Origin: a virus
Taxonomy: Duplodnaviria; Caudoviricetes
Direction: 5' to 3' (one strand)
Virus record (IMG/VR): IMGVR_UViG_3300014158_000352
Coordinates: 1-44,044 of that record
Length of the DNA stretch: 44,044 bases
Below are positions 3,043 through 31,075 of the stretch, piece after piece. The number at the start of each line of letters is the position of its first letter. The first letter of the stretch is position 1. The notes under the pieces are model-generated. The model was not told where the DNA came from. It saw nothing but the letters and a program-made list of their open reading frames with translations, and did no database searches. Position numbers and translations under genes: made by a program.

Positions 3043-3815
3043 CCGAACCAACGCTCGCCGCGGTCCCGGACGCTCTCGACTGGGACGTGCCGATCCACGT
3101 GGCCATGCAGCGGATCTTTGCTGACATCGAACCCATCGCTAAGACCGAGCAGAACGAGCAGCAGAAGTACAGCTTCCGCGGGGTCGACACCGTGATGAAC
3201 GCCCTGCACGAAATCTTCAATCGGCACCACGTGATCCCGCTGCCGCGCTACACGATGCTCGGATCCGAGCAACGGCCGACCAGGAGCGGTGGCGAGCTGC
3301 GCTTCGTGACCCTGCGTGTCCGCATCAAGTGTGTCGGGCCCCAGGGCGACTCGTTGACCCTCCAGACCATCGGCGAGGCGGCCGACACCTCGGACAAGGC
3401 GTGCAACCAGGCTATGCAGGCCGGGCTCAAGTACGCCCTGTTCCACACCTTCCTGATTCCGACCGGCGAAAAAGACGCCGATGCTACGACGCACGAGCTC
3501 GGGGGAGCGATCCAGCGCGAGAATCAGGGCCAGCCCGGTCGGTCGGCTCGCCCATCGGGTCGACCGACCGGGCCCTCTCCTGTCCAACCGGCACCCGGGG
3601 CCAAGAAGGGCGACCGGGGAATGATCACGGTCAAGCAGGGCAACGCCCTGTTCGCGATTAGCCGGCGCCTCGACTTCGAGCTTGCTGATTTCCTCCAGCT
3701 CATGTTCGAGCGCGACGAGGACCATCTGACCTTGGAAGAGGCCAAGCAGCTGATCGACGACCTCAACTCCCAAGCGATCGACCCCGTGCAGTTGCTTGAG
3801 GCGGCGGCTCAGTGA
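3036..3815 (+). CDS. ERF-family single-strand annealing protein
   Basis: IAKTEQNEQQKYSFRGVDTVMNAL..GEAADTSDKACNQAMQAGLKYALF..IPTGEKDAD; adjacent to the exonuclease. Confidence 0.88.
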   Translation: MVAEPTLAAVPDALDWDVPIHVAMQRIFADIEPIAKTEQNEQQKYSFRGVDTVMNALHEIFNRHHVIPLPRYTMLGSEQRPTRSGGELRFVTLRVRIKCVGPQGDSLTLQTIGEAADTSDKACNQAMQAGLKYALFHTFLIPTGEKDADATTHELGGAIQRENQGQPGRSARPSGRPTGPSPVQPAPGAKKGDRGMITVKQGNALFAISRRLDFELADFLQLMFERDEDHLTLEEAKQLIDDLNSQAIDPVQLLEAAAQ

Positions 3816-4769: not shown

Positions 4770-4908
4770 TCCACGGGCCTACATATCACCGCGCGCAACC
4801 TGGATGCCACGAGCATCAACGCCCCGGCAGTTCACCGGGAGGCGAGCAGGCGAGCGCATCAGCGGCGAAGCCCCACCACCTACCGCATTTCTCGGAAAGG
4901 AGTGGCAA

Positions 4909-5514
4909 ATGCGCCGCTTATTAGATTTATCAAGGAGCGTTGCAGCATGGGTAGTCATGAGTTGGACACGAGCGGCCGGCACGGCGGTATGCGTGTTGTT
5001 GCTGGTGACGCTGGGGATACTGCCGGGTCCAAACTTGAGCCCTGCGCCCGTTGTCTTGCGATTGCCCAGAAGCGCATCAGTTCGGACATCTGGGTCTACC
5101 GCCATCGCCCTGGCGGCTGCCCCCTCAACGACGACGGTTCCTTACGCCCCACCGACGACGACCACAACCGCACCGGCCCCAGTCGCCACCCCGCCGGTCT
5201 CCGTGCCGACAACGATCCCGACGGAGGGATCTGTCAGTGGTGACCCTTACCCGGGGGCCTTCGCGGCGCTCTCGCCCTCCGACCAGGCTGCCTTTGCCTG
5301 CATCCGACAGGCCGAGTCCGGTGACACCTACACCGACGACACCGGCAACGGGTACTACGGCGCGTACCAGTTCATGGAGGGGACGTGGCTGGGCATCGGC
5401 GAGTCGGGCTATCCGAACGGCGCTGCGCCGGTGGTGCAAGACGACGGAGCCGCGGCACTCATGGAGCGGTCGGGATGGGGACAATGGTCGACGGCCACCG
5501 GGTGCGGCCGGTGA
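4909..5514 (+). CDS. Secreted/membrane-anchored Rpf-like lytic transglycosylase
   Basis: AAGGAG SD; hydrophobic N-terminus, T/P-rich linker, then CIRQAESGD..TGNGYYGAYQF..TW..GWGQW..C. Confidence 0.85.
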   Translation: MRRLLDLSRSVAAWVVMSWTRAAGTAVCVLLLVTLGILPGPNLSPAPVVLRLPRSASVRTSGSTAIALAAAPSTTTVPYAPPTTTTTAPAPVATPPVSVPTTIPTEGSVSGDPYPGAFAALSPSDQAAFACIRQAESGDTYTDDTGNGYYGAYQFMEGTWLGIGESGYPNGAAPVVQDDGAAALMERSGWGQWSTATGCGR

Positions 5515-14898: not shown

Positions 14899-16620
14899 GT
14901 GGCGGGCAAGGGGGACGCCAACATTCCCCAGCCGGGGGTGTTGGTCCGCAAGAAACGCGAAGCCCAGGACCGGGTTCTGTCGCTTTTGTCGCAGGGGGTC
15001 ACGGTCTCCGACGCCATGGACGCCGTGGGGCGAGCCCGGCCGACCTTCTACCACTGGAGCGCCAATGAGCCGTGGTTCCGAGACCGCGCCGAGAGTGTCC
15101 GGGCCCGTGAGATGGGCGAAGAGGCGCCTCCGTTCACGGCGTTCCGCAAAGCCTTCTTCGGGTTCGAGACCTTCTGGCACCAGGAGAAGATCGTCACCGC
15201 GCTGGAGGCCGCCCCGGCTCGCAGTGTGACCATGGTCCTGCTTCCGCCCGGGGCCGGGAAGACCACCGTCCTCGAGGACTACGTCTGCTACCTCCTCGCA
15301 ACAGACCCCAACGAGCGGATCTGCGTCATCTCTGAGGCCCAGGCCCACGCCCGCAAGATCATCCGACGGGTGTCCAACCGGATGACCGACCGTTCGCTCT
15401 TCGGGGCGTTCATCGACAGATTCGGGCCGTTCAAGGCCGACGACAACGAGCAGAATCGCCCCTGGTCAGCCGATGTTTTGACCATGGTGCAAGCCTCGTC
15501 GGGAGAGCGGGACTACTCGCTCGAGTGCCGGGGAGCGGGGAGCTCGATCTACGGTGCCCGCTTCTCGCGCATCCTCTTGGACGACGTGCAATCGCTCAAG
15601 AACCTCGCCGCAACCCCGTCCCTGGTCGAGTACTTCCGCCAGGACGTCTACACCCGCCTTCCACCCGACATGACGACCGGGCGCGTCTACATCGTGGGAA
15701 CCCGGGTCGGCAACGATGACTTCTACGAGACCCTGTTGACCGAGGGGATCGTCGACGAGCTCATCAAGATCCCGGCCCTGATCGAGCACCCCGACGATCC
15801 CGACGTCAAGCACTCCTACTGGCCCAAGCGGACCATGGCCGACGGCACGACGGTCGGGTTCGACGTCGACGACCTGGCCCAGATCGAGGCCAAGGTGGGC
15901 GAGACCACCTGGTCACGGGTCTACATGCAAGAGCCGGTCTCCAAACGCGGCCAGACGTTCTCGGAGAAGGCGATCCGGGGGGCCCTGGACGAAGAGCGGT
16001 CGATTCTTGATACCACGAACCCGGGCATGCTCACCATCGCCGCCCTCGACCCAGCCCTGGCCGGGCACAGCGTGTTCCGGGTGGCTTCGCTTACCTACGA
16101 CAAGCTCTTCCTGCTCGACGGGCGCAACGAGGAGGGACTGGCCCGCTTCGAGGATATGTGGGAGATCATCAACGACCTCTCGGCCATGTGGCACCCCTCC
16201 CTCTGGATCATCGAGGGCAACGCGATCCAGGGCGGGATCGCCCGCTCGGACCGGATCGAAGAGGTGGCGCGCCAGCACGGGTTCCACATCGTCAGCCACC
16301 AGACCGGGCGCAACAAGTTCGACGACGTGATCGGGGTCACGTCGATGTCCCAGTCCTTCGCCACCAACTCGATCTCGATCCCGTGGAAGGACGACGTCTC
16401 GCAACGCGCCTTCGCCCTGCTCCCCGAAGAGCTCCGTCGCTGGCGACCTGATGTTCCGACGAAGCTCCTGCGCCAGGACGAGGTCATGTGCCTGTGGTTC
16501 CTGCACTTGCACTGGCAGCAGCTCCGTCACTCGCTCGCCACCCGGATCGACGGCCGCATCCTCACCCAGCGGCTCCCCTGGCGACCGATGGGCCTTCCCA
16601 CCATGGCGGCGGTGGGCTGA
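14899..16620 (+). CDS. terL: Terminase large subunit with N-terminal HTH extension
   Basis: Walker A PPGAGKTT, Walker B RILLDD, VGTR coupling motif, YMQEP, nuclease ALDPA..IEGNAIQ..QDEVMCLWF. Confidence 0.92.
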   Translation: MAGKGDANIPQPGVLVRKKREAQDRVLSLLSQGVTVSDAMDAVGRARPTFYHWSANEPWFRDRAESVRAREMGEEAPPFTAFRKAFFGFETFWHQEKIVTALEAAPARSVTMVLLPPGAGKTTVLEDYVCYLLATDPNERICVISEAQAHARKIIRRVSNRMTDRSLFGAFIDRFGPFKADDNEQNRPWSADVLTMVQASSGERDYSLECRGAGSSIYGARFSRILLDDVQSLKNLAATPSLVEYFRQDVYTRLPPDMTTGRVYIVGTRVGNDDFYETLLTEGIVDELIKIPALIEHPDDPDVKHSYWPKRTMADGTTVGFDVDDLAQIEAKVGETTWSRVYMQEPVSKRGQTFSEKAIRGALDEERSILDTTNPGMLTIAALDPALAGHSVFRVASLTYDKLFLLDGRNEEGLARFEDMWEIINDLSAMWHPSLWIIEGNAIQGGIARSDRIEEVARQHGFHIVSHQTGRNKFDDVIGVTSMSQSFATNSISIPWKDDVSQRAFALLPEELRRWRPDVPTKLLRQDEVMCLWFLHLHWQQLRHSLATRIDGRILTQRLPWRPMGLPTMAAVG

Positions 16621-19373: not shown

Positions 19374-22300
19374 ATGCCTGGCGGCTCGATCGAGGTGCAG
19401 GGTGCCTATGGGGCCGTGGGCAACGCCGTCGATCCGGGCACGGTCGCGGCGTCAGGGCTCTCGGCCGATTCGGTCCACGAGGCGGCAGGCCAGGCCATGG
19501 CTTCCGGTGCCTACGGTTCGGCCACCAAGACAGCCGATCAGCTCCATCAGCTCGACATCTCCCAGCAGCGTTCCTACTGGGGCGACCTCGCCCCAACCCA
19601 ACAAGGCATGCTCAAGGCGGTCGGCTATGACCTGCCCCCGGACCCCTCGGTGGCCGCGGATCACCCTTCGGGGCTCTGGGGCGATTTCATGGGCGTGGCC
19701 CACGACATCGGGCATGGGATAGCGACGGGTGCGCACGCGGTGGGCAACGTCGCGAGTGACCTGATGCGCACCGGCCCGGTCAAGGACGTGCTGCACGTGG
19801 CCAACGCGGGGCTCAGCTTCTCCGAGCACGTGGTCCGGGCCGGCGAGGTGCTATCGGAGAACGCCGATGTCGGGGACGCGACGCCGAGCCAGGCGGCCGG
19901 CGCCGGCGTCAACATGAAATCGCTGGTCGACCCGCGCGGCTACGAGGCGCTTTTCAGTCCCTCTGCATGGTCACGGGCCTGGAACGAGACCACCAACGGT
20001 GAGCAGACCTTCGATCCTCTCGTCGAGCGTCAGATCCAAAAGACCACCGACCCGACTGTGTTCAAGATGGCCAAGCAACTTGCTTCGGGCGTCCCTGAGC
20101 AAGAGATCGTTCAGGCGTTCCCCCAGGCACAACGCCAAGCGGCCGTGCAGATGCTCACGAGTGGCTCGGTGCGCACAGTCTCCCAGGAGCTCCAGAACGC
20201 CCACCTGTCGCTCGGTCAGATGGTGGTGGGAGAGAGCTACCTGACCTCCCACCCCGGGCTAGGACACGCGATGTCCGGTGCGATCGATGCCGCCTACGAC
20301 ATCGCCGGTGACCCGCTTATGCAATCGGGCAAACTCGTCGACGCGGTCAAGATCGCTCGTTGGGGGCTTGACGGTGCGCGAGCGGCCGCGTTTGCCGGGT
20401 CCGACACCTCGGCCTTCGAGCAGCTGCTCGCCAATCCGGCCACCCAGCGGTACATCAAGTACTACGGCGACATCATCGAGCACCGAGGACTCGGGGCGCT
20501 GACAGCGGTCGCCCCGAAGCTCGCCCGGGTTGCCAACGAGCTCGGCGCTTCGGGCGTCACCGATGCGGACTCGCTCGAGGAGTGGATGCGATCGGTCGCC
20601 GGCCAGCGGGCCATCCTCACTGGCCGCGCGGCGACGCTGGCCCACCACACGCCCCTCATGCCGCATCTCTCGCTCACTGGCTGGGCCCGGCTCAGCGCCA
20701 AGGACGCGCTCAGCAATTCGATTGACTGGCTGGCCGATCACCCCAAGGGGCTGCCCAGTGAGGCTCTCGCCCGGGATGACATGGTGCATGCCAGCCTCCC
20801 GGTCGAAACGGCGCTCGACTCGGCCAAGGCGATCCCGAAGACCCTCGACGAGCTCGCTCCGATGGGCGACACCCCCCTCCAGACCAAGCTGGGCGGGACG
20901 GTGTCACGCATGGTCATCGGTGGTCCCGGCGCAGCGGCACGGCTCTTCCGGCGCCTGACCACGATCACGGCCGATGCTCCGCGCCTCGGTCTCTTCGATC
21001 CCGAATCCGCGGTGCTCTTACGTCGTGAACTGGCTGGGTTCTTGTCGAAGCGACAGGTCGACCAGGCCGTGGATCTGTTCGTGAACACCACCGACCCAGG
21101 TCAGAAGTTCGCGGTGGTCAAGGGCGCGGTCGCCCAGATGCTCCACGCGGCCGGCGTGTACTCGGGGCCCCGAGGGGCCGAGCTCGGCGATCAGATGCTC
21201 GATGCCCTGGAGAACACGTTTCACGGCGAGGCGTACTCGCCGCTCGGCATCGACAAGATGGCCGACTACAACCGTGCCCGCAGCGGCCTGAGCGCAGCGA
21301 CCCCGTTCTCTGGGCCCGAACGCTCGGCGGTGCTCGAGACCCAACTGTCCGATGGCGTCTACATGCCCAGCTTCAAGGAAGTCCGCGCCGCGGCTCGGCG
21401 CGACAAGGCCTACTACGGGCTCGGGATCATCAACCCGGACACGCTCGACAAGGTCATGGGAGCGTGGAAGGCCGGCGTGCTGATGCGCGTCGGTTTCGCG
21501 GCTCGTGTCTCGACCGACGAGTGGCTCTCCAACGCGCTCCGCAATGGAGGATTCCAGGCGATCGAGGCTCGGGCTCGTCTCATGCTGGCCAAAGGCGACG
21601 CTCGGCGGGAAGCAGAGGCGGCGGCCGATGAGGGGGCCGCACTCGACGGCATGTCGATCGAAGAGCAACGTACAGTGTACGCGGCCCAGTCCGTTGCCGC
21701 TCGGGTCCCGCACGCGATCCTCGCCAATGTGCGCAGCGCCAAGGAGCTCAGCGCAGCGGTGTTGGCCGAAGGTGCGCATGGTGCGTATCGGCTCTTCGGC
21801 GGGGACATGACCCGGCAGGAGATGTACGACGCGGCCCGGGTGTACGTCGACCACGTCTGGGACGATCTCTCACCTCGGATCTCGTCGGTCGCTCACGCCG
21901 GCGGTGGTTACGACATGAATGACGACCTGCGCATGGCCCTGAACGACAACGACAAACCCGTCGCGTGGCGCCTGAAACGTGAGGGTCACTCCGAATCGAC
22001 GTCCGTCGATCCCCTGATGCGGACCAAGTGGCACTTCTCTCTCGGACATCTTGGGCGTTCGAGGCTCGGGCGAGCGGTGCTTGAGACGATCCACGACCCA
22101 CATGAGGACCAGATCGACGCGGTCGAGGGTGTGCTGCGGGACCCCGATTTCCAGTCCATCCGGGCACAGTTCGCTCGCGCTCGGCAGTTGCCCGATGGGC
22201 GCCTGGTCGGGCGCGATGCCACCGAGGACGAGGCGATCCGATCACATGCACAAAAAGTGGTCGCACACACAAACGCCCTGGTGAGAGCCTCGAACGCCCA

Positions 22301-24191
22301 GAACGGCGACATCCTCGACGATGTAGTCGACGCGACGCTCAAGGCAAAGGGCAGCCCAGCGATGTCAGTGCTCGACGGGGTCGAAAACCATGACCTCCCC
22401 GAAGGCGTCTACGGACCCGACCTGGTCCGGTTGCCGCCATTCGAGCGCATCGTGCAGACCGGGTTCCGTGGGCTCTCCAAGATCATCGACAACCTCTCCC
22501 GAGAGCCGATCACGATGCAGGCGTACGCGGCGAGCCTCAAAGACGTCATGCCCTACGCCGAGCGGCTGATGGGCGAAGGCGAGCACGCCGAGGAACTGGC
22601 ATCGGATCTGGCCAAAGAACGGGCCTACAACATGATCAAGCCCTATATCCACAATCCCGAGGTGCGCAGCCAGTTCGAGGTTATGCACCGCACGGCGATG
22701 CCGTTCCTGTTCGCCCAGGACCAGTTCATCAAACGGTGGATCCGCACGTTCGCCGACTCGCCCGAGGCGATCCGCAAGGCGCAATTGATGATGAACGGGC
22801 TCAACGTGTCGGGCTTCACGCGACCGGACCCGACGACAGGCCAACCGTTCTTCTACTACCCGGCTACCCAAACCGTGGCCAACATCTTGGCGAATGTGCT
22901 CACCAAGATCGGCATCCCCGCCTCGATGCCCATCTCGGTCCCGTTCACCGGCGAAGTGGTGAACCTCATGCCGGGCTTGTCGAACCCCCTCACCCCCTCA
23001 GTGGGTCCGATCGTCGCGGTGGCACTCAAGGGTCTCGCCAGCCGGTTCCCCGAGATGGAGCCGGTGAACCAGGCGGTGCTTCAGGAAGGCGCGTCGGAGT
23101 CGATCTGGGAACAGTTCCTGCCGACCACGCTCAACCGCCTCATCATCGCGGCGACTGCCAGCCCGTACACCAACGCTCAGTTTGCAAGCTCGATGATGAA
23201 AGCGATCCAGATGGCCGAGGCGACCGGCCATGGGCTACCGGCGAACGCGACGACCCAGCAGCAGCAGGCGTATCTCGACCGGGTCACCAACTGGACCCGG
23301 ATCTTGTACTTCACTCAGGCCGCACTCGGCTTCTTCACGCCGGCGACGCCCGAGGCCGACTTCGATCCCAAGAACTTCAACGCCCGACTGACCCAGCTCT
23401 TTACCGAGTTGCCCTACAACGAGGCCATCGCCGAGTTCCTGCGGGAGAACCCGACTGCTACGCCGTACACCGTGTTCGCATCCCAGGAAACGGGCGATGT
23501 CCCGGACCTCCCAGCCACGCAGGCCGCCGGGGCGTTCATGCAGGCCAACCGGGGCTTCATCGACCAGTTCCCAGCCGCAGCCGGGTGGTTCTTTCCGCGC
23601 ACCACGGGGACTGGGACCTTCGACCCGGCGATCTACCGCGAGCAGATCACCCAGGACATGCGCACCGACAAGTACCCGTCCCAGTTCCTCCAGGACGTGC
23701 TCATGGCGCCATCGGCCAGCACCTACTATGAGGCGCTCGACAACGAGCAGACCGCGCTCAACAGCGCCGCGTCGACGTCGGCCAAGGACACGATCGAGGC
23801 CAACTTCGATCAGTGGAAGGCTCAGTTCCTTTCGACCAACCCATCCTTCGCCGATTACCTCACGAGTGGCGGAAAGGCGGTCGTCCGCGCTGACACCATC
23901 CGGGAGATGCGCCAGGCCTTGGCATCGCCCGATGCACCGCAGAGCGCGCAGGCCGATCACTTGAACACCCTGCTCCAGGGGTATTTCAACTACGAGCAGG
24001 GGTACGCATCAGTCGACGGTAACTACAGCTCGACGGCGACCGCGTATCGCAAGTCCCTCGAGACCAACTTCACCGCGTGGGCCAACAGCTACGCCGCGAC
24101 CTACCCTGATGCAGCCGATTTCTGGACCGTCGTGCTCCAGCCCGAAATGGGCGCGAGCGGAGTAGAGGCGGGGCTGGCCAATGGCGGCTAA
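19374..24191 (+). CDS. Large internal virion / DNA ejection protein (1605 aa)
   Basis: Very long Ala-rich helical ORF without tape-measure periodicity, in a podoviral context. Confidence 0.72.
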   Translation: MPGGSIEVQGAYGAVGNAVDPGTVAASGLSADSVHEAAGQAMASGAYGSATKTADQLHQLDISQQRSYWGDLAPTQQGMLKAVGYDLPPDPSVAADHPSGLWGDFMGVAHDIGHGIATGAHAVGNVASDLMRTGPVKDVLHVANAGLSFSEHVVRAGEVLSENADVGDATPSQAAGAGVNMKSLVDPRGYEALFSPSAWSRAWNETTNGEQTFDPLVERQIQKTTDPTVFKMAKQLASGVPEQEIVQAFPQAQRQAAVQMLTSGSVRTVSQELQNAHLSLGQMVVGESYLTSHPGLGHAMSGAIDAAYDIAGDPLMQSGKLVDAVKIARWGLDGARAAAFAGSDTSAFEQLLANPATQRYIKYYGDIIEHRGLGALTAVAPKLARVANELGASGVTDADSLEEWMRSVAGQRAILTGRAATLAHHTPLMPHLSLTGWARLSAKDALSNSIDWLADHPKGLPSEALARDDMVHASLPVETALDSAKAIPKTLDELAPMGDTPLQTKLGGTVSRMVIGGPGAAARLFRRLTTITADAPRLGLFDPESAVLLRRELAGFLSKRQVDQAVDLFVNTTDPGQKFAVVKGAVAQMLHAAGVYSGPRGAELGDQMLDALENTFHGEAYSPLGIDKMADYNRARSGLSAATPFSGPERSAVLETQLSDGVYMPSFKEVRAAARRDKAYYGLGIINPDTLDKVMGAWKAGVLMRVGFAARVSTDEWLSNALRNGGFQAIEARARLMLAKGDARREAEAAADEGAALDGMSIEEQRTVYAAQSVAARVPHAILANVRSAKELSAAVLAEGAHGAYRLFGGDMTRQEMYDAARVYVDHVWDDLSPRISSVAHAGGGYDMNDDLRMALNDNDKPVAWRLKREGHSESTSVDPLMRTKWHFSLGHLGRSRLGRAVLETIHDPHEDQIDAVEGVLRDPDFQSIRAQFARARQLPDGRLVGRDATEDEAIRSHAQKVVAHTNALVRASNAQNGDILDDVVDATLKAKGSPAMSVLDGVENHDLPEGVYGPDLVRLPPFERIVQTGFRGLSKIIDNLSREPITMQAYAASLKDVMPYAERLMGEGEHAEELASDLAKERAYNMIKPYIHNPEVRSQFEVMHRTAMPFLFAQDQFIKRWIRTFADSPEAIRKAQLMMNGLNVSGFTRPDPTTGQPFFYYPATQTVANILANVLTKIGIPASMPISVPFTGEVVNLMPGLSNPLTPSVGPIVAVALKGLASRFPEMEPVNQAVLQEGASESIWEQFLPTTLNRLIIAATASPYTNAQFASSMMKAIQMAEATGHGLPANATTQQQQAYLDRVTNWTRILYFTQAALGFFTPATPEADFDPKNFNARLTQLFTELPYNEAIAEFLRENPTATPYTVFASQETGDVPDLPATQAAGAFMQANRGFIDQFPAAAGWFFPRTTGTGTFDPAIYREQITQDMRTDKYPSQFLQDVLMAPSASTYYEALDNEQTALNSAASTSAKDTIEANFDQWKAQFLSTNPSFADYLTSGGKAVVRADTIREMRQALASPDAPQSAQADHLNTLLQGYFNYEQGYASVDGNYSSTATAYRKSLETNFTAWANSYAATYPDAADFWTVVLQPEMGASGVEAGLANGG

Positions 24192-25443
24192 GGCGGCGGC
24201 CAAGCGAGCCACGGCGCTGCCGCCGGTTCCGGTCAAGGCCAAGCGATCGGTTGCCTCCAGCGCGCCGAGCGCATCTGAGCTTGCTAGTGGAGTTGCCGGC
24301 GCGACAGGCGCTTCCGTTCCTGGTGGCGCGATCAATCCCTCCAGCGCGTATGAGAACTACCCGGCCAACGACCTCACGCCATCTCAGCAGCCGGCTGCAT
24401 GGGGGATCACCAACCCAAGCCTCCAGATGTACGTGGGATCGAAAAGCCAGGAACTCCCCACTTCGTCGCCACTCCGGCAGAACCGTTTGATGGGGGACAT
24501 CGCCGACCGGATCGGGGTCAAGGCCGAACCCGTTGACCAGATGCCAGCACAATATCTACCGACCAGCCTGGCGCTGTATTTCGGTGTCCCGGTCGGCAAA
24601 GATGAGAAGAGCGACGTAGTGCTCCGAGCAGTGGCTGACAAGCTCGGTGTGCCGAAGACCGTCAAGGGCAACACGCTCTGGACCTCGGTGGCCGACAAGC
24701 TCGGTATAGATGTCACGGGATCCTCGAAGATCGTGCAGAACCCTCAGACGATGTCGATCGTGAATGTTGCCGCGTCGATCTACAACATGAGTGGCTCTCA
24801 GCTTGAGGCCCTTCAGACCCAGCTTTACGACGCCGGCTATTACGACCAGAACGTCTACACCACTGGGACAGTTGCGAGCAAGGTCACCCCTGGCAACCTC
24901 GATCCGTACACGATGAAAGCATGGGGAACCTTCTTGCAATCGGTCGCGAGCTCGGGCAAGAACACGACGTGGAGCGACGTGCTCAACACAGAGGCGACCA
25001 CGGCGGCCAAGCAGCAGGGCACGACGGGCCAAGGCATCGCCACGCTGCTCGCGGGATCCACCCCGGTCACCTCGTCCACCCCATCGGTTCAGCAGGCCAC
25101 CGCCGGTCAGCTGCTTGATCCGCTGCGTTCGATGTTCGAGCAGATGCTGGGGCGTCTCCCGACCGACGCGGAACTTCAGCAGTTCGTGACCCAGTACGAC
25201 GCGGCGCAGCAAGCCAACTCGAAATACATCGACCCGAACACGATCGTCTTCCCGGACTCCGACACCGGCATCGCCGAGGTCCCGGGCGTGCCACGTGCCA
25301 CCTACGCGGCCGAAGCAATGGCTCAGTCCGACAACACCGAATATCAGGCCCACCAGATCACCAACGCTGGCGCTCTCATGCTGAACGCGATGCGTGGTGG
25401 GTCCGGGCTCGGGACCGAACCGAATGTGACGAACGCCGGATGA
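24181..25443 (+). CDS. Probable internal virion protein
   Basis: T/S/Q-rich; LQTQLYDAGYY and FEQMLGRLPTDAELQQF motifs. Confidence 0.65.
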   Translation: MAAKAAAKRATALPPVPVKAKRSVASSAPSASELASGVAGATGASVPGGAINPSSAYENYPANDLTPSQQPAAWGITNPSLQMYVGSKSQELPTSSPLRQNRLMGDIADRIGVKAEPVDQMPAQYLPTSLALYFGVPVGKDEKSDVVLRAVADKLGVPKTVKGNTLWTSVADKLGIDVTGSSKIVQNPQTMSIVNVAASIYNMSGSQLEALQTQLYDAGYYDQNVYTTGTVASKVTPGNLDPYTMKAWGTFLQSVASSGKNTTWSDVLNTEATTAAKQQGTTGQGIATLLAGSTPVTSSTPSVQQATAGQLLDPLRSMFEQMLGRLPTDAELQQFVTQYDAAQQANSKYIDPNTIVFPDSDTGIAEVPGVPRATYAAEAMAQSDNTEYQAHQITNAGALMLNAMRGGSGLGTEPNVTNAG

Positions 25444-26693
25444 CGATGACCGGAGCACAGGCGGTGGCGCCTCCTGCGAGCGAGGTCGCGCCTCAAGCGA
25501 TCGACACGGTCGACGCCAATCTCATGCCGTTGGCCCAGAAGATCGCGCAAGGGATCGCGTCGGGCGTGGTCGCGCAGCCCGACGACCCATCAGGTTGGCA
25601 GAGTCTGGTCAACCAGTTTCAGACTGGTGGTCCAATCCCCGGCACCGAGCCGGTCACGCCGGCGGCGAACACGGTGAACCTCGAGGCCACAACACAGCCC
25701 GACTCAGTCCCTGGGGCCGTGACGGGGACGCTGGCGTCGTTCCTGTCGGCGATTCGTGAGCACGAGTCCGGTGGCGACTACACAGCCGCGAACGCGGGAG
25801 GCGGGGCGTCAGGGGCCTACCAGTTCATCCAATCGACCTGGGACAACGAGGCCGCGGCAGCCGGCTACGGCCAGTACGTCGGGCGCCCGGCCGCCGACGC
25901 TCCACCGTCGGTGCAAGACGCCGTGGCGGCGCACATGGCCACCTCCTACTACAACCAGTTCGGCGGCAACTGGGCCGACGTTGCTGAGGCGTGGTACATG
26001 CCCGCCTACGCGGGCAACCCAGCCGATCAGAACACCGTGCCCGATCCCCAGGCTGGCAACACTCAGACCGTGGCTCAGTACGCGCAAGCGATCACCTCGG
26101 CCATGGGCGCGAGCAGTGCGCCGTCGAGCTCGACGGTGGCTAACAGCGGCGGGGCGATCGGATCCCAGGCGGCGGTGTCGTTCGCCCAGTCCCAACTCGG
26201 CGTCCCCTACCAGTGGGGCGGCGAGACAACGGGCAAGGACTTCGACTGCTCGGGGCTCGTGCAAGCGGCCTACGCGGCGGCGGGCGTCTCGCTTCCCCGC
26301 ACGGCCCAAGCGCAATACGACGCCACTCAGAAGCTCGGCTCAAGCGCCCAGCTCCAGCCCGGCGACCTGGTCTTTTTCGGCACCAGCACCAAGGACATCA
26401 CTCACGTGGGGATTTATGTCGGTGGGAACCAGATGATCGACGCACCCCAAACCGGCGAGAACGTCCGAACCGAGAGTTACCAGTGGGCCGACTTCGTGGG
26501 GGCGACCCGGCCCAGCGACCCGACGGGCCTTTCGGTGGCTCAGGACGCTGCCGCCACACCGAGCACCACGCCAGCGGCCACCCCCAGCACGGCGCCTGCC
26601 ATGTCTCTCGGTGCCTACTACACGGCCCTGGACCAGGTGGTCTCCGCTCTCGCTCAGAACGGGGCTCAGATCGTGGGGGGTGGACGGCCGTGA
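25440..26693 (+). CDS. Virion peptidoglycan hydrolase: lysozyme-like transglycosylase plus NlpC/P60 peptidase
   Basis: IREHESGGDY..ASGAYQFIQSTW; QLGVPYQWGG..FDCSGLV..PGDLVFF..HVGIY. Confidence 0.92.
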   Translation: MTMTGAQAVAPPASEVAPQAIDTVDANLMPLAQKIAQGIASGVVAQPDDPSGWQSLVNQFQTGGPIPGTEPVTPAANTVNLEATTQPDSVPGAVTGTLASFLSAIREHESGGDYTAANAGGGASGAYQFIQSTWDNEAAAAGYGQYVGRPAADAPPSVQDAVAAHMATSYYNQFGGNWADVAEAWYMPAYAGNPADQNTVPDPQAGNTQTVAQYAQAITSAMGASSAPSSSTVANSGGAIGSQAAVSFAQSQLGVPYQWGGETTGKDFDCSGLVQAAYAAAGVSLPRTAQAQYDATQKLGSSAQLQPGDLVFFGTSTKDITHVGIYVGGNQMIDAPQTGENVRTESYQWADFVGATRPSDPTGLSVAQDAAATPSTTPAATPSTAPAMSLGAYYTALDQVVSALAQNGAQIVGGGRP

Positions 26694-27703
26694 GCGGCAC
26701 CATGTCATCGACGGGCGACCCGATTGTCGCTACCGGGACCGGCTTCACCGACAACGCCAGTTCGGCCCCCCCGACCGATGCTTCGGCCATCGCGACGGCG
26801 ATGCAGGTATGGGACTCGAACCCAGCCCTTCAGCAATACGTGGCTCAGAACTACGGCTACGACGCATGGATGCTCGCCAATCCCGAGCTGGCCCCGATCC
26901 TCATCGCCACCGCCTACTGGGGCTGGGATCAGGCGCACGTCGACGGAGCTCTCTCGACGACGACCTGGTGGGCCCAGAACGGCCAAGCAGCGCGGTCATG
27001 GCAGGAGCTCACGCAAACGGACCCGGCCACGGCCCAGCAGCAGGTCTCCCAGATGTCGAACACGATCCTGGCCGAGGCCAACTCGCTCGGAGTCCAGCTC
27101 AGCAATCCGGCGATCACCAACCTGGCCACGTTGGCGTCGGAATTCAACTGGGATTCCGACACAATTCATCAGATGGTGGCGCAGCAGTACGCGAGCACGG
27201 CTCCCGGACAGGGGCAAGGTACGGCCACCGGAGGTACGGCCGCCCAGTTTGGTGATCAAGCGCAGCAGCTCATCCAGCAGTACATGGTCCCGGTCTCTCA
27301 GGGCACGCTTGCGACTTGGACCAACAACGCCGTGCTCGGGACGGCGGACATCTCGGGCTTCGAGGACTATCTGCGCAACGCCGCGACGGCGATGTACCCG
27401 TGGATGAAAACGGCCCTGGCCCAAGGCATGACGCCTCAATCGTGGTTCTCGCCGTACACGAGCCAGGCCGAGTCGATTTTGGGGATCTCGAGCGATCAGG
27501 TCAACTGGACCGACCCGAAGTGGCTCAACGCGCTCACGGCGTCTCAGCCCGACGGCACGACGGCGCCGGTCAACCTGACCCAGTTCGCCAACACGCTGCG
27601 CTCCGACCCGACGTTCGGTTACCAGTACACGGCCGATGCCAAGCAGCAGGCGTACACCATGGCCCAAACGATCACTGACGCCTTCGGAAAGACGGCCCAA
27701 TGA
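26690..27703 (+). CDS. Probable internal virion protein
   Basis: GTGA coupling; Q/T/A/W-rich 337-aa ORF. Confidence 0.7.
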   Translation: MSGTMSSTGDPIVATGTGFTDNASSAPPTDASAIATAMQVWDSNPALQQYVAQNYGYDAWMLANPELAPILIATAYWGWDQAHVDGALSTTTWWAQNGQAARSWQELTQTDPATAQQQVSQMSNTILAEANSLGVQLSNPAITNLATLASEFNWDSDTIHQMVAQQYASTAPGQGQGTATGGTAAQFGDQAQQLIQQYMVPVSQGTLATWTNNAVLGTADISGFEDYLRNAATAMYPWMKTALAQGMTPQSWFSPYTSQAESILGISSDQVNWTDPKWLNALTASQPDGTTAPVNLTQFANTLRSDPTFGYQYTADAKQQAYTMAQTITDAFGKTAQ

Positions 27704-28569
27704 CCAGCACACTCGCAACCGGAGACAGCTCGGGCGGCGCGGCCTCGGCGATGGCCATCGTCAACCAGGTGCTCACGCAGTACGGGCTCCAGTCGCTCAC
27801 GACCTGGGCGTGGAACGAGATCACCCAAGGTGCCTCGAGCGACCAGGTGACGATGGACATGTACCAGACGCCCCAGTTCCAGGACCGTTTCCCTGGAATC
27901 GCGGCACGCCAGGCCGCGGGGCTGCCGGCGATCAGCCCGGCCAGCTACGTGAGCTACGAGGATTCGCTGGCCCAGATGGAGAACCAGTACGGGCTCCCCC
28001 AGGGAATGCTCACTAACCCCGCCACGGTGTCGGCTTTCATCGGCCAGGACGTCTCGACCGCCGAAGTGCAGCAGCGCGTCGAGAACGGCTACCAGGCGGT
28101 GGCCTATTCACCGCCGGAGGTGCGTCAAGCGTTCACGCAGTACTTCGGGCCCAGCGGCGATGGGGCCCTGGCCGCTTACTTCCTGGATCCGAAGGCCGCG
28201 CTCCCCCTGCTCACCCAGCAGGCCACGGCCGCCCAGATGGGAGGCACCGCAGCGATCGGCGGCGTCCAGATGACCGAGCAGGACGCCATGGAGCTCGCCG
28301 GCCTCGGTCAGACCGAAAGCTCGATCGGCTCTGGGATCGCCAATCTCGAGCAGCACGCCCCCCTGTACGAGGCATCCGTGACCGAGCAGCCCGGGAGCCT
28401 CGAAGAGGGCACCCAGGGCGTCGAGAGCCAGTTCGGGCTTTCCCAGCAGGCCACCCAGCAGGTCATCCAGCGCCAGGAGCAACGAGAAGCCGCCTTTGCC
28501 GGGCCCACCCAGCCGGCCGAGATCACCTCCACCGGCGCCGGTGGCGTTGGCGCTGCGAAGCCGATCTAA
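27700..28569 (+). CDS. Probable internal virion protein
   Basis: ATGA coupling; FQDRFPG..ISPASYVSYE..VSTAEVQQRV..LAAYFLDP. Confidence 0.7.
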   Translation: MTSTLATGDSSGGAASAMAIVNQVLTQYGLQSLTTWAWNEITQGASSDQVTMDMYQTPQFQDRFPGIAARQAAGLPAISPASYVSYEDSLAQMENQYGLPQGMLTNPATVSAFIGQDVSTAEVQQRVENGYQAVAYSPPEVRQAFTQYFGPSGDGALAAYFLDPKAALPLLTQQATAAQMGGTAAIGGVQMTEQDAMELAGLGQTESSIGSGIANLEQHAPLYEASVTEQPGSLEEGTQGVESQFGLSQQATQQVIQRQEQREAAFAGPTQPAEITSTGAGGVGAAKPI

Positions 28570-28591: not shown

Positions 28592-28828
28592 ATGGCTGAA
28601 ATCATCTTGGGGTCGAATGTCCGAGCTGCCCAGAGCGACCCGAGTGGGCCTCCTGGGCGCACCCGTGGTGGGGTGCCGGGCGACCAGGCCCGGGAGGGCC
28701 GGGCGGCCGCCGACAAGACCGCCGGGAACATGACCGCGCTGCCGCCGTACCTCCAGAACCCGACCGCCGATCCGCTCCAGGACGCGTTCGGCGAGGGCAA
28801 CTTCGGCGATGTTGGGCCTTCCACCTGA
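28592..28828 (+). CDS. Hypothetical protein
   Basis: GAAAGGA SD, 78 aa. Confidence 0.65.
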   Translation: MAEIILGSNVRAAQSDPSGPPGRTRGGVPGDQAREGRAAADKTAGNMTALPPYLQNPTADPLQDAFGEGNFGDVGPST

Positions 28829-28873
28829 GCGAAATGCTTGACAGAGGTCCGAGACTCTGTTTCGGTCCTCAAT

Positions 28874-28947
28874 AGCGCAGTGGAGCAGTCCAGTAGCTCG
28901 CCGGGCTCATAACCCGGAGGTCGCCGGAGCAAAGCCGGCCTGCGCCA
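28874..28947 (+). tRNA. tRNA-Met(CAT), initiator-like, with non-canonical D and T loops
   Basis: Acceptor AGCGCAG/CTGCGCC+A; D stem GAGC/GCTC; anticodon arm CCGGG-CTCATAA-CCCGG; T stem GCCGG/CCGGC with loop AGCAAAG; no encoded CCA. Confidence 0.8.
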
Positions 28948-29127
28948 CGAGCACCGCGTAATGCGGTCCGGGGTGAGCTGGATCACCGGCCCCCGGCCTC
29001 CGATCGGGGCGCGACCGATCGAGTTGGGCAGCGCAGAGCCCCTCGCTGGGGAGCGCGCGGGCTTTCCTTTCCATTCCCCCCTCCGTACATGTCCTCCGCA
29101 TGTGCGCGTTTGGCAAGGAGAGATCAG

Positions 29128-29655
29128 ATGGCAGAGATCGAGGACACCCAGGGAACTGGCGAAGAGGGCGGCGGCGACGCCAATCTCAAGCAGCTCCGGG
29201 CGAAGGCGAAGGTGGCGGACGAGGCAACGGCGGCGCTGGCAGCACTACAGCGAGAGAACGCCATCCTCAAGTCCGGGATCGACGTCGACTCCCCGATGGG
29301 CAAGTACTTCACCGAGACCTACCAAGGCGAACCCGGCGACGTGGACGCGATGGTGGCCAAGGCGAAGGAGTTGGGCATCCCGCTGAAAGGCGAGACCCCC
29401 GCACCGCCCGTTGCACCCGTGACCCCGCCCGAGGCCCCTGAGCCCACCGGAACCGAGGAACGCCAAGCTCTTGCGAGCGGCGCACCCGCGGACACCGGCG
29501 AGAACGCCGACCCTCGCAAAGAGGGCAAAGACCGCTTCGACGAGGCGATGTCAAAGGGAGCGACCTGGGAAGAGGCAGCCGGCCAGATGGTGAACCACCT
29601 GGCCAATGCCGCCGAACGGGGCGATCCGAGGGTTCTGGCCAACGTCCAGAGATGA
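29128..29655 (+). CDS. Capsid scaffolding protein
   Basis: AAGGAG SD; acidic N-terminus, NLKQLRAKAK coiled coil; lies upstream of the capsid gene. Confidence 0.72.
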   Translation: MAEIEDTQGTGEEGGGDANLKQLRAKAKVADEATAALAALQRENAILKSGIDVDSPMGKYFTETYQGEPGDVDAMVAKAKELGIPLKGETPAPPVAPVTPPEAPEPTGTEERQALASGAPADTGENADPRKEGKDRFDEAMSKGATWEEAAGQMVNHLANAAERGDPRVLANVQR

Positions 29656-29942
29656 TCCGCACGCATGACGGCTCGCACGGGCCCGACTGTTTCGGCTGCA
29701 AGGTGCAGTCGATCAGTTTTGATCCCTATGCGATGCCTTCACGGCTGAACAAGAAGATCCCACCTCGGACGCCGAACCCAGCCTGGGAACGGGGTATCCC
29801 GACCGACAGTCGGGGCATGCCTTTCCTGCGCAAGGACGGCACGCCAATGGGCGTCAAGGAGTACTCGGAAAACCGCCATCAGATCGAGCAACACCGCAGG
29901 GCGCTGCATAACTCGACCGATTCGCTGACACCGAGGAGCTGA
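29652..29942 (+). CDS. Conserved phage hypothetical protein (H..H..CFGCK motif)
   Basis: ATGA coupling; THDGSHGPDCFGCKVQSI. Confidence 0.7.
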   Translation: MIRTHDGSHGPDCFGCKVQSISFDPYAMPSRLNKKIPPRTPNPAWERGIPTDSRGMPFLRKDGTPMGVKEYSENRHQIEQHRRALHNSTDSLTPRS

Positions 29943-29947
29943 ACGAA

Positions 29948-31075
29948 ATGGCCACCGGCACAATCACCACCTACGGCCTCACCACTGGGGTCAAGCTCGA
30001 CGTCGAAGACATGATCTGGACGATCACGCCGTTCGACGTGCCGCTGCTTGGCACCCAGGGATCAGACGGCCGTACCGCCATCTCCCAGACCACCGTTTTC
30101 GAGAAGAAGATCGAGTGGCTGGACGAGGTGTTGCTGATCCCGAACTCGACCCTGGGTGCGACCGTGGCCACCACGGACACGTACATCACGGTCGCCTCGG
30201 GGACCCAGCTCAACTTCCAAACCGGCGACGTGCTCCGCGTGGGCACGGGAGCCGCAGCGGAGGGCATGCTGGTCACCGGGTACGGGACCACGGCGAACAC
30301 GCTGACCGTCACGAGGCAGTACAACTTCGGGACCGAGGCGCAGTTCCTGGCAGGGACCTCGGTGCTCGGGACCGGCCAGGCGAACGCCGAAGGTGCCGAC
30401 GCCGGCACGGCGCGGGCAGTCGATCGTGTCGACAGGTATAACCTGACCCAGATCTTCGGGCCGGTGCCTGTGCAGGTGTCCGGGACCGAGAACGCGGTCC
30501 AGAAGTACGGGCTGACCGGGACCGAGTTCGACCACCAGGTGGCGAACCGGATCAAGGAGACCTTCGTCTCCCTCGAGCAGGCCCTACTCTACGGGATGCT
30601 GTACGACGACGGTGCCGCGAAGCGGACCATGGGTGGGTTCGTGAACTACATCACGACCAACGTCGACAGCACGTCGACCACCCTGACCGACACCACGTTG
30701 CTCGGCAACCTGCGCAACACCTTCAACGCCGGTGGGACGCCTGACCGCATCCTGCTCGGTGCCAAGCAGAAGCAGAACGTGTCGGGGATCAACAACTCGA
30801 ACATCCGCTACGCCCAGGACACGAACACCCGTGGCCAGGTCGTGGACTACTACGACGACGACTTCGGTCGCCAGCTCGTGGTCCTCGACCGTTGGGCGCA
30901 GAACAGCGACGCGTTCATCTTCTCCCGGGATCAGGCGACCGTGGCCACGCTGCGGCCTCTGACCTTCGAGATGCTGGCCAAGACGGGCGACTCGGCCAAG
31001 GGCCAGGTCGTTGGCGAGAAGTCGCTGTACTTCCGCCGGCAAGCCTGGGCCAGCTGGATGCAGGCCCTGGTCTAA
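29948..31075 (+). CDS. Major capsid protein (SU10/DUF5309-like)
   Basis: GAGGAG SD; DVEDMIWTITPFDVPLL, KIEWLDEVL, RYNLTQIF..VQVSGT, LEQALLYG, RTMGG, LAKTGDSAKGQVVGE. Confidence 0.88.
   Translation: MATGTITTYGLTTGVKLDVEDMIWTITPFDVPLLGTQGSDGRTAISQTTVFEKKIEWLDEVLLIPNSTLGATVATTDTYITVASGTQLNFQTGDVLRVGTGAAAEGMLVTGYGTTANTLTVTRQYNFGTEAQFLAGTSVLGTGQANAEGADAGTARAVDRVDRYNLTQIFGPVPVQVSGTENAVQKYGLTGTEFDHQVANRIKETFVSLEQALLYGMLYDDGAAKRTMGGFVNYITTNVDSTSTTLTDTTLLGNLRNTFNAGGTPDRILLGAKQKQNVSGINNSNIRYAQDTNTRGQVVDYYDDDFGRQLVVLDRWAQNSDAFIFSRDQATVATLRPLTFEMLAKTGDSAKGQVVGEKSLYFRRQAWASWMQALV

Follow-up and report, generated by a model that had tools for sequence, protein, structure and literature searches.

Bacterial initiator tRNAs (tRNA-fMet) of the E. 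coli metZWV/metY type have a standard cloverleaf with a CAU anticodon, a 1:72 mismatch, G2-C71, C3-G70, A11-U24, an anticodon stem with three G-C pairs, A73, and G19, C56 and A58. The formylation determinants among these are the unpaired 1:72 position, G2-C71, C3-G70, A73 and a purine 11-pyrimidine 24 pair, and the initiator enters the P site directly, without EF-Tu. Eukaryotic initiator tRNAs have an A1-U72 pair and A60. G18, ribothymidine 54 and pseudouridine 55 are taught as near-universal in tRNAs.

At the level of the unmodified bases, G18, U54, U55 and a pyrimidine at position 60 are near-universal among tRNAs (PMC10424219), and G19-C56 is described as an exposed pair that is read by RNase P and other partners (PMC5485724). 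Several departures from this plan have been described. Eukaryotic initiator and alanine tRNAs use A54-A58, the alanine one with a purine at 60, and those tRNA-Ala pairs were reported as unseen in bacteria or archaea (PMC7566577). The YGNRA T-loops of the FMN and cobalamin riboswitches have G at position 2 and an intercalated A (bioRxiv 10.1101/2022.12.26.521914). The tRNA-Pyl of Desulfitobacterium hafniense functions while lacking both G18 and the T-psi-C motif (PMC1851642, PMC7609411), and its G55 is named in the first of these papers. Phage tRNAs that differ from the host copy at a possible anticodon nuclease site have been discussed as evaders of such nucleases (PMC10264068); the terms "T-loop" and "D-loop" occur nowhere in the main text of that report, and neither "initiator" nor "phage" occurs in the accessible text of a review of non-canonical tRNAs (PMC7609411). 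Our literature search, whose coverage mostly excluded subscription journals, turned up no publication that describes natural tRNAs with an A18/G55 elbow.

Nucleases that attack the T loop are also known. Cash is a Schlafen effector of type III CRISPR whose main cleavage site in tRNA is the UUC motif of the T loop; it cut 28 E. coli tRNAs, and a single mutation at U54 or U55 abolished cleavage, although the supplement text does not give the substituted letters (PMC13462974). In vitro, a UC motif within the tRNA-Ile(CAU) anticodon loop is a secondary site for it, and the same report states as open whether Cash targets phage tRNAs (PMC13462974). A CDI toxin is reported to cut the T loop between T and pseudouridine (PMC9086364).

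The sole tRNA gene of the window (the whole 44,044-nucleotide stretch of DNA analyzed here, a provirus record) is 74 bases long and lies on the + strand at 28874-28947, from base 1 to discriminator A73; the next bases are CGA, so CCA is not encoded. The sequence-only reading of this DNA had suggested a run of ARAGORN and had warned that standard scanners may score the gene as pseudo. ARAGORN calls tRNA-Met(CAT) at just these positions, and the Rfam RF00005 match (51.3 bits, E 3.1e-08; gathering score 29) passes the family cut-off, so the warning did not hold for these two scanners. The acceptor stem has six base pairs beneath an A1/C72 mismatch. The D stem is GAGC/GCTC and the D loop AGTCCAGTA, with A18 and G19 at 28892-28893. 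The anticodon arm (28901-28917) has the stem CCGGG/CCCGG, whose G29-C41, G30-C40 and G31-C39 are the three G-C pairs of bacterial initiators, and the loop CTCATAA with CAT at 28908-28910. The T stem, GCCGG/CCGGC, is fully paired and closes a T loop (28928-28934) of A54 G55 C56 A57 A58 A59 G60 (AGCAAAG). The energy of this cloverleaf equals that of the minimum-energy fold, -31.8 kcal/mol. Unpaired A1/C72, G2-C71, C3-G70, A11-U24 and A73 are all present, as formylation requires. The earlier observation of an initiator-tRNA-like RNA with intact stems is upheld, with every tested initiator hallmark kept; so are its T loop AGCAAAG, its D-loop AG, the retained G19-C56 and the missing CCA.

Compared with bacterial tRNA-fMet, with which it shares every feature listed above for that type, the window tRNA has A18, A54, G55 and G60 in place of G18, U54, U55 and a pyrimidine at 60, and it cannot carry ribothymidine 54 or pseudouridine 55. 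It is a double variant, in which G18/U55 has become A18/G55 and U54/U60 has become A54/G60; because the four near-universal bases are replaced in matched pairs, the elbow is counted as a tRNA variant. The sequence-only reading had held that the tertiary partners change together. This is right for A18/G55; it had overlooked G60, the base that co-varies with A54, and A58, the partner of base 54, is unchanged. The window tRNA shares A54 opposite A58 and a purine at 60 with eukaryotic initiator tRNA-Met and tRNA-Ala(AGC), but has a bacterial-type D arm, a 1:72 mismatch, G60 and A18/G55 (PMC7566577); it has the A54-A58 of eukaryotic initiators without their A1-U72 and A60 (A1/C72 and G60 here). With the YGNRA riboswitch T-loops it shares a G at T-loop position 2 and, presumably, an intercalating adenosine, but position 1 is A rather than a pyrimidine and the setting is a tRNA elbow (bioRxiv 10.1101/2022.12.26.521914). 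It resembles tRNA-Pyl in doing without G18 and T-psi-C, but tRNA-Pyl also lacks G19 and has another architecture, whereas the window tRNA keeps G19-C56 and a standard cloverleaf (PMC1851642, PMC7609411).

The 18/55 swap is tightly coupled in viral sequences. A scan that fixed A18 only (52 of 64 parts) gave 97 distinct CAU tRNAs, 94 with G55 and three with U55; U54 is present in 91 of the 94 and A54 in three. The reverse mismatch, G18 with G55, was found in one stretch across all viral contigs, against an estimated ~3200 canonical ones. Among 78 well-paired distinct A18 tRNAs with elongator-type D arms, 67 have G55. The 54/60 swap is coupled as well. A scan that left position 60 free, in which the commonest T loop was ATCGAAA, found six bacterial-type A54-U55 initiators, all with G60 and with GG kept, and a seventh (L122) with the aberrant loop ATCGTAA. 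A dedicated scan for A54/G60 with G18/U55 found seven viral stretches. In a pooled set of 280 sequences, which is a biased sample since it mixes searches fixing one or both sides, G60 accompanies A54 in 24 of 24 cases and occurs in 0 of the 256 others; the D loop is nine bases long in all 24 A54 sequences of this set and seven bases long in 138 of 151 single A18/G55 forms. One initiator pattern misses long D loops, and its 10 of 77 is no frequency. The variant bases are concentrated in viruses, with ~150 A18 against ~3200 canonical viral stretches, while the species genomes gave ~200 G55 stretches among 185,579. The seven A54/G60 stretches (L518-L524) are viral initiators of bacterial type in which an intact GG goes with ATCGAAG, a eukaryote-like T loop; three of them lie in tRNA arrays.

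The same double-swap elbow recurs in unrelated phage-like contigs. With nothing but the anticodon arm and AGCRAA specified, a pattern search yielded seven viral stretches (four distinct tRNAs), all with A18 and G60. A metagenome scan gave 27 loci, of which 19 are intact tRNAs with A18 and G60 throughout (one, L375, is the window's own sequence), two have GG and a broken T stem, and six are chance matches. There are 17 distinct double-swap sequences, with T loop AGCRAAG; 95.8% of their stem cells are paired, 12 of 21 pairs have changes on both sides, and 0 of 500 shuffles scored as high. Position 1:72 is unpaired in 14 of the 17 and G19-C56 is invariant. Their source contigs range from 34 to 69% G+C and carry differing capsid and portal families, and the double-swap tRNA is the initiator of six tRNA arrays of 4-32 tRNAs each. 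It is thus a real, conserved new variant of initiator tRNA. The search of relatives for the same loop substitutions, which the sequence-only reading had called for, bears out its opinion that this is not random decay, since 17 distinct sequences, whose stems are compensated, have this elbow and the covariation of 18 with 55 is nearly perfect. That the gene is a decaying tRNA or an integration-site remnant is accordingly very improbable: such an origin might account for the missing CCA, the lack of a -10 and the absence of the gene from five related phages, but the stems are perfect, the loop letters recur and the covariation largely refutes it. Of 97 canonical viral initiators, 56 likewise lack CCA and 41 encode it, as do nine of the 17 family members. 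An integration-site remnant in particular was rejected, as the tRNA lies 27 kb from the integrase and none of its 12-mers is repeated at the provirus ends.

The elbow is not confined to initiators. A18/A54/G55/G60 is also present on viral tRNAs with anticodons GTC, TTT, TGC, TAT, GTT, TGG and TAC (L422, L428, L433, L437, L461, L490 and L505). Near one double-swap initiator lies a CTA-anticodon tRNA with a canonical T loop (L377, 5586-5659), a possible amber suppressor. Among cultured phages, six INPHARED regions were examined; five gave parsable initiators, all canonical, and L651 gave no parse. In Sinorhizobium phage phiLM21 (L652, 1499-1575), the annotated tRNA-Met lies opposite to the strand that reads as an initiator.

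The provirus host likely belongs to the Acidimicrobiia, probably the Acidimicrobiales, because among the 120 integrase relatives listed, six of the seven that carry a taxon name are Acidimicrobiales. In 151 Acidimicrobiia genomes, 130 have an initiator match (127 have one match each), and 133 of 133 matches are canonical GG/TTCAA. A G55 scan of species genomes (39 of 64 parts) gave 120 stretches, 81 of them Patescibacteria by title, nearly all with A18; three have G18. None is a clean double swap, so that in the parts scanned this form was not seen as a chromosomal initiator. In 13 of 13 checked Patescibacteria assemblies, which are incomplete, no initiator-type match other than the A18/G55 form was seen, and because it is the only initiator found there the single-swap initiator likely works. 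In three proteobacterial genomes an A18/G55 initiator is an extra copy beside the canonical one, and of eight non-Patescibacteria loci scanned, three have terminase or integrase neighbours and two are Bacteroidales with housekeeping neighbours. The Bacteroidales genomes with such an initiator are L131, L139 and L220, the first two being those with the housekeeping neighbours. Loss of TruB as the driver of the swaps was considered and rejected, since PF01509 is present in 11 of 13 Patescibacteria genomes with the variant and in 10 of 14 with the canonical form.

Within phage tRNA arrays, G55 is found in 0 of 172 neighbours in 13 arrays with a canonical initiator and in 10 of 211 neighbours in 18 arrays with a G55 initiator (p 0.003; one of the ten has a degenerate loop, and the arrays are not independent). 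Counted by array, G55 neighbours occur in 0 of 13 and seven of 18, respectively (p 0.025, again with arrays that are not independent), and 201 of 211 neighbours (~95%) in the G55-initiator arrays keep U55.

The reading that we favor, with a probability of about 0.45, is that of a phage initiator with two coupled elbow swaps which would supplement translation initiation in late infection and, by prediction, withstand host nucleases reading U54-U55-C56. That the window tRNA is a working initiator is quite probable. It should fold as described, would likely be charged and formylated by host enzymes, and would receive its CCA from the host; its transcription may accompany that of the late head genes or occur beside them. 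In its elbow, G55 would hold an intercalated A18 as in riboswitch YGNRA T-loops, A54 would form the pair with A58 known from eukaryotic initiators, position 60 being a purine, and G19-C56 would preserve the outer platform that RNase P and the ribosome recognise. Of all tRNAs, the initiator probably tolerates such a change best, since its entry into the P site is direct and does not involve EF-Tu. Reported in vivo selections of D- and T-loop variants by the Steinberg laboratory may include combinations of this kind that function in E. coli.

T-loop cleavage is the best lead for why the swaps arose. U54 and U55 are both absent from the window tRNA, as proposed for resistance to Cash, and nucleases reading U54-U55-C56 would be expected to fail on it. 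The viral bias and the within-genome clustering of G55 fit selection. The sequence-only reading had offered a nuclease- or toxin-resistant fMet-tRNA, for which it named VapC: this is plausible for T-loop nucleases, but not for anticodon nucleases of the VapC type, as the anticodon loop CTCATAA is that of 133 of 133 Acidimicrobiia matches (the search pattern fixed that loop, and the host class is itself deduced from the integrase relatives). Like the phage tRNAs proposed to evade anticodon nucleases, this tRNA departs from its host counterpart where a nuclease might act, but its changes lie in the D and T loops and its anticodon loop is host-like, so the anticodon-escape model does not apply (PMC10264068). 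Against escape from Cash, one resistant tRNA could not rescue translation from so broad a nuclease, and ~95% of array neighbours keep U55; U33-C34, the UC motif of the secondary Cash site in the anticodon loop, is also kept. The broader proposition, that phages evolved a distinct, mostly initiator class of tRNAs that escapes T-loop-cutting immunity (Cash Schlafen and similar) by an elbow that lacks both conserved uridines, is tentative and on present evidence rather doubtful.

A close rival of nuclease escape is that the tRNA is a working initiator that tops up initiation, with an elbow that is a neutral, compensated design and has no defence role, and this is quite possible, if short of probable. 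Each single swap exists alone (A18/G55 with U54, and A54/G60 with G18/U55 in the seven viral stretches), A18/G55 serves as the only initiator found in the Patescibacteria assemblies, most array neighbours are canonical, and the gene context is like that of canonical viral initiators (10 of 34 against 13 of 53 beside head genes; see below). Housekeeping use in Patescibacteria and the two Bacteroidales chromosomal loci fit a neutral variant just as well, and the Patescibacteria argument for function covers the single A18/G55 swap only. But unmatched intermediates are rare (A18/U55 in three of 97, G18/G55 once), so the path is not free; there is a strong viral bias outside Patescibacteria; and G55 neighbours cluster with G55 initiators. 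The suggestion that the RNA is a non-translating decoy that binds tRNA-targeting defence proteins is much less credible. The single copy, the late-gene position and the confinement of its differences from the host initiator to elbow and stems would suit a decoy, but all charging and formylation hallmarks are kept, the single-swap relative does housekeeping duty as an initiator, large tRNA arrays have the double swap as theirs, and a decoy for a T-loop reader should retain the recognised motif, not lose it.

To what is described this locus adds the double swap with its 54/60 coupling and a concrete, testable link to defence. A natural family that drops G18, T54 and pseudouridine 55 in matched pairs represents a second way to build the tRNA corner, and its single and double swaps are ready-made sequences for testing an alternative corner. 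If the broader proposition of a T-loop-escaping class is true, rebuilding the elbow would be a second route of tRNA counter-defence beside anticodon-loop changes, and this would be the first bacterial-type tRNA design from nature in which a riboswitch-like A18/G55 contact and a eukaryote-like A54/A58 pair occur together. Variant tRNAs of this kind might also be useful as scaffolds independent of TrmA and TruB. The double-swap sequences make targeting of phage tRNAs by Cash (PMC13462974) directly testable.

The tRNA gene sits between a 78-aa ORF (28592-28828, +) without a family match and the structured non-coding leader (28948-29127, +) of a 175-aa ORF (29128-29655, +). The latter has no family match either and is a likely scaffold gene by its position only, with homologues in the same place in three related phages (L646, L647 and L648). 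It is followed by a 96-aa protein (29652-29942, +), conserved before the capsid gene with tblastn matches in five of five related loci, and by an SU10-type major capsid protein (29948-31075, +; phrog_1328 E 1.8e-53, PF17236 E 3.7e-59). Profile searches of the window placed the integrase at 1-1248 and the terminase at 14899-16620. Five related phages, with capsids 44-58% identical to that of the window, keep the gene order, and none of the five has a tRNA within 4 kb of its capsid gene, so the tRNA is a lineage-specific gain or loss.

This arrangement had suggested that the tRNA might mainly be a signal for cutting by RNase P / RNase Z, which would define where the scaffold-capsid mRNA begins at its 5' end. 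It does directly precede the leader of the scaffold-like gene, and five or six of 11 lone double-swap tRNAs adjoin head or packaging genes. Lone canonical viral initiators, however, also do so in 13 of 53 cases (54 loci minus one without an ORF), as do 10 of 34 lone A18/G55 viral initiators (38 loci minus L293, which has U55, and L294, L306 and L325, which are double swaps; p 0.63); the double swaps do not exceed the canonical initiators significantly (p 0.27 or 0.07, with ORFs chosen differently), and a special link of the variant tRNA to head genes was accordingly rejected. The same elbow is found in tRNA arrays, the five syntenic phages share this gene order but lack the tRNA, and a cutting signal would need neither an anticodon nor initiator hallmarks. 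We consider this explanation improbable; if the tRNA is co-transcribed with these genes, its cutting would still follow as a side effect.

Upstream of the tRNA, a perfect -35-like TTGACA (28838-28843, +), whose function as a promoter element is presumptive, ends 30 bases 5' of tRNA base 1; the promoter scan agrees with the sequence-only reading that it has no clear -10. TTGACA occurs six times in the window, counting both strands. The space between it and the tRNA is filled by an inverted repeat (28844-28870, +; -16.7 kcal/mol) that may be terminator-like, operator-like or a 5' leader hairpin. Leaderless transcription from tRNA base 1 was tried as an explanation and dropped: a -35 at that distance is found in four of 17 family members and four of 93 canonical initiators, which is suggestive only, and a -10 in four of 17 and 16 of 93, the window being without one. 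TTGACA is also present at the syntenic intergenic site of the tRNA-less phage L648 (about 2950-2970; window counterpart 28838-28856), and a -10-like hexamer follows it after only seven bases (GAGACT in the window, CATACT in L648), possibly a late promoter of unusual build.

The leader of the scaffold-like gene ends in a hairpin (29085-29105, loop CCUCC) followed by a Shine-Dalgarno-like AAGGAG (29115-29120). Aligned leaders matched poorly (44% identity), and a hairpin with an anti-Shine-Dalgarno-like loop (CUCC/CCUC) 10-15 bases 5' of the ribosome site is present in the window (29085-29120) and in L646, L647, L649 and L650; L648 differs from these in its scaffold-leader hairpin. It is a candidate for a pseudoknot that could control scaffold translation. 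Elsewhere in the window, a long G+C-rich hairpin lies within the ERF gene (3520-3585), with a chance-level Rfam match (E 0.69). PF06737 transglycosylase-like proteins, typical of Actinomycetota phages, are encoded at 4804-5514 and 25440-26693, the second fused to NlpC/P60. From the terminase region to the tRNA, 19374-28569 encodes large, mostly unassigned proteins (1605, 420, 417, about 330-496 and 289 aa), which, located before the capsid gene, are perhaps ejection proteins.
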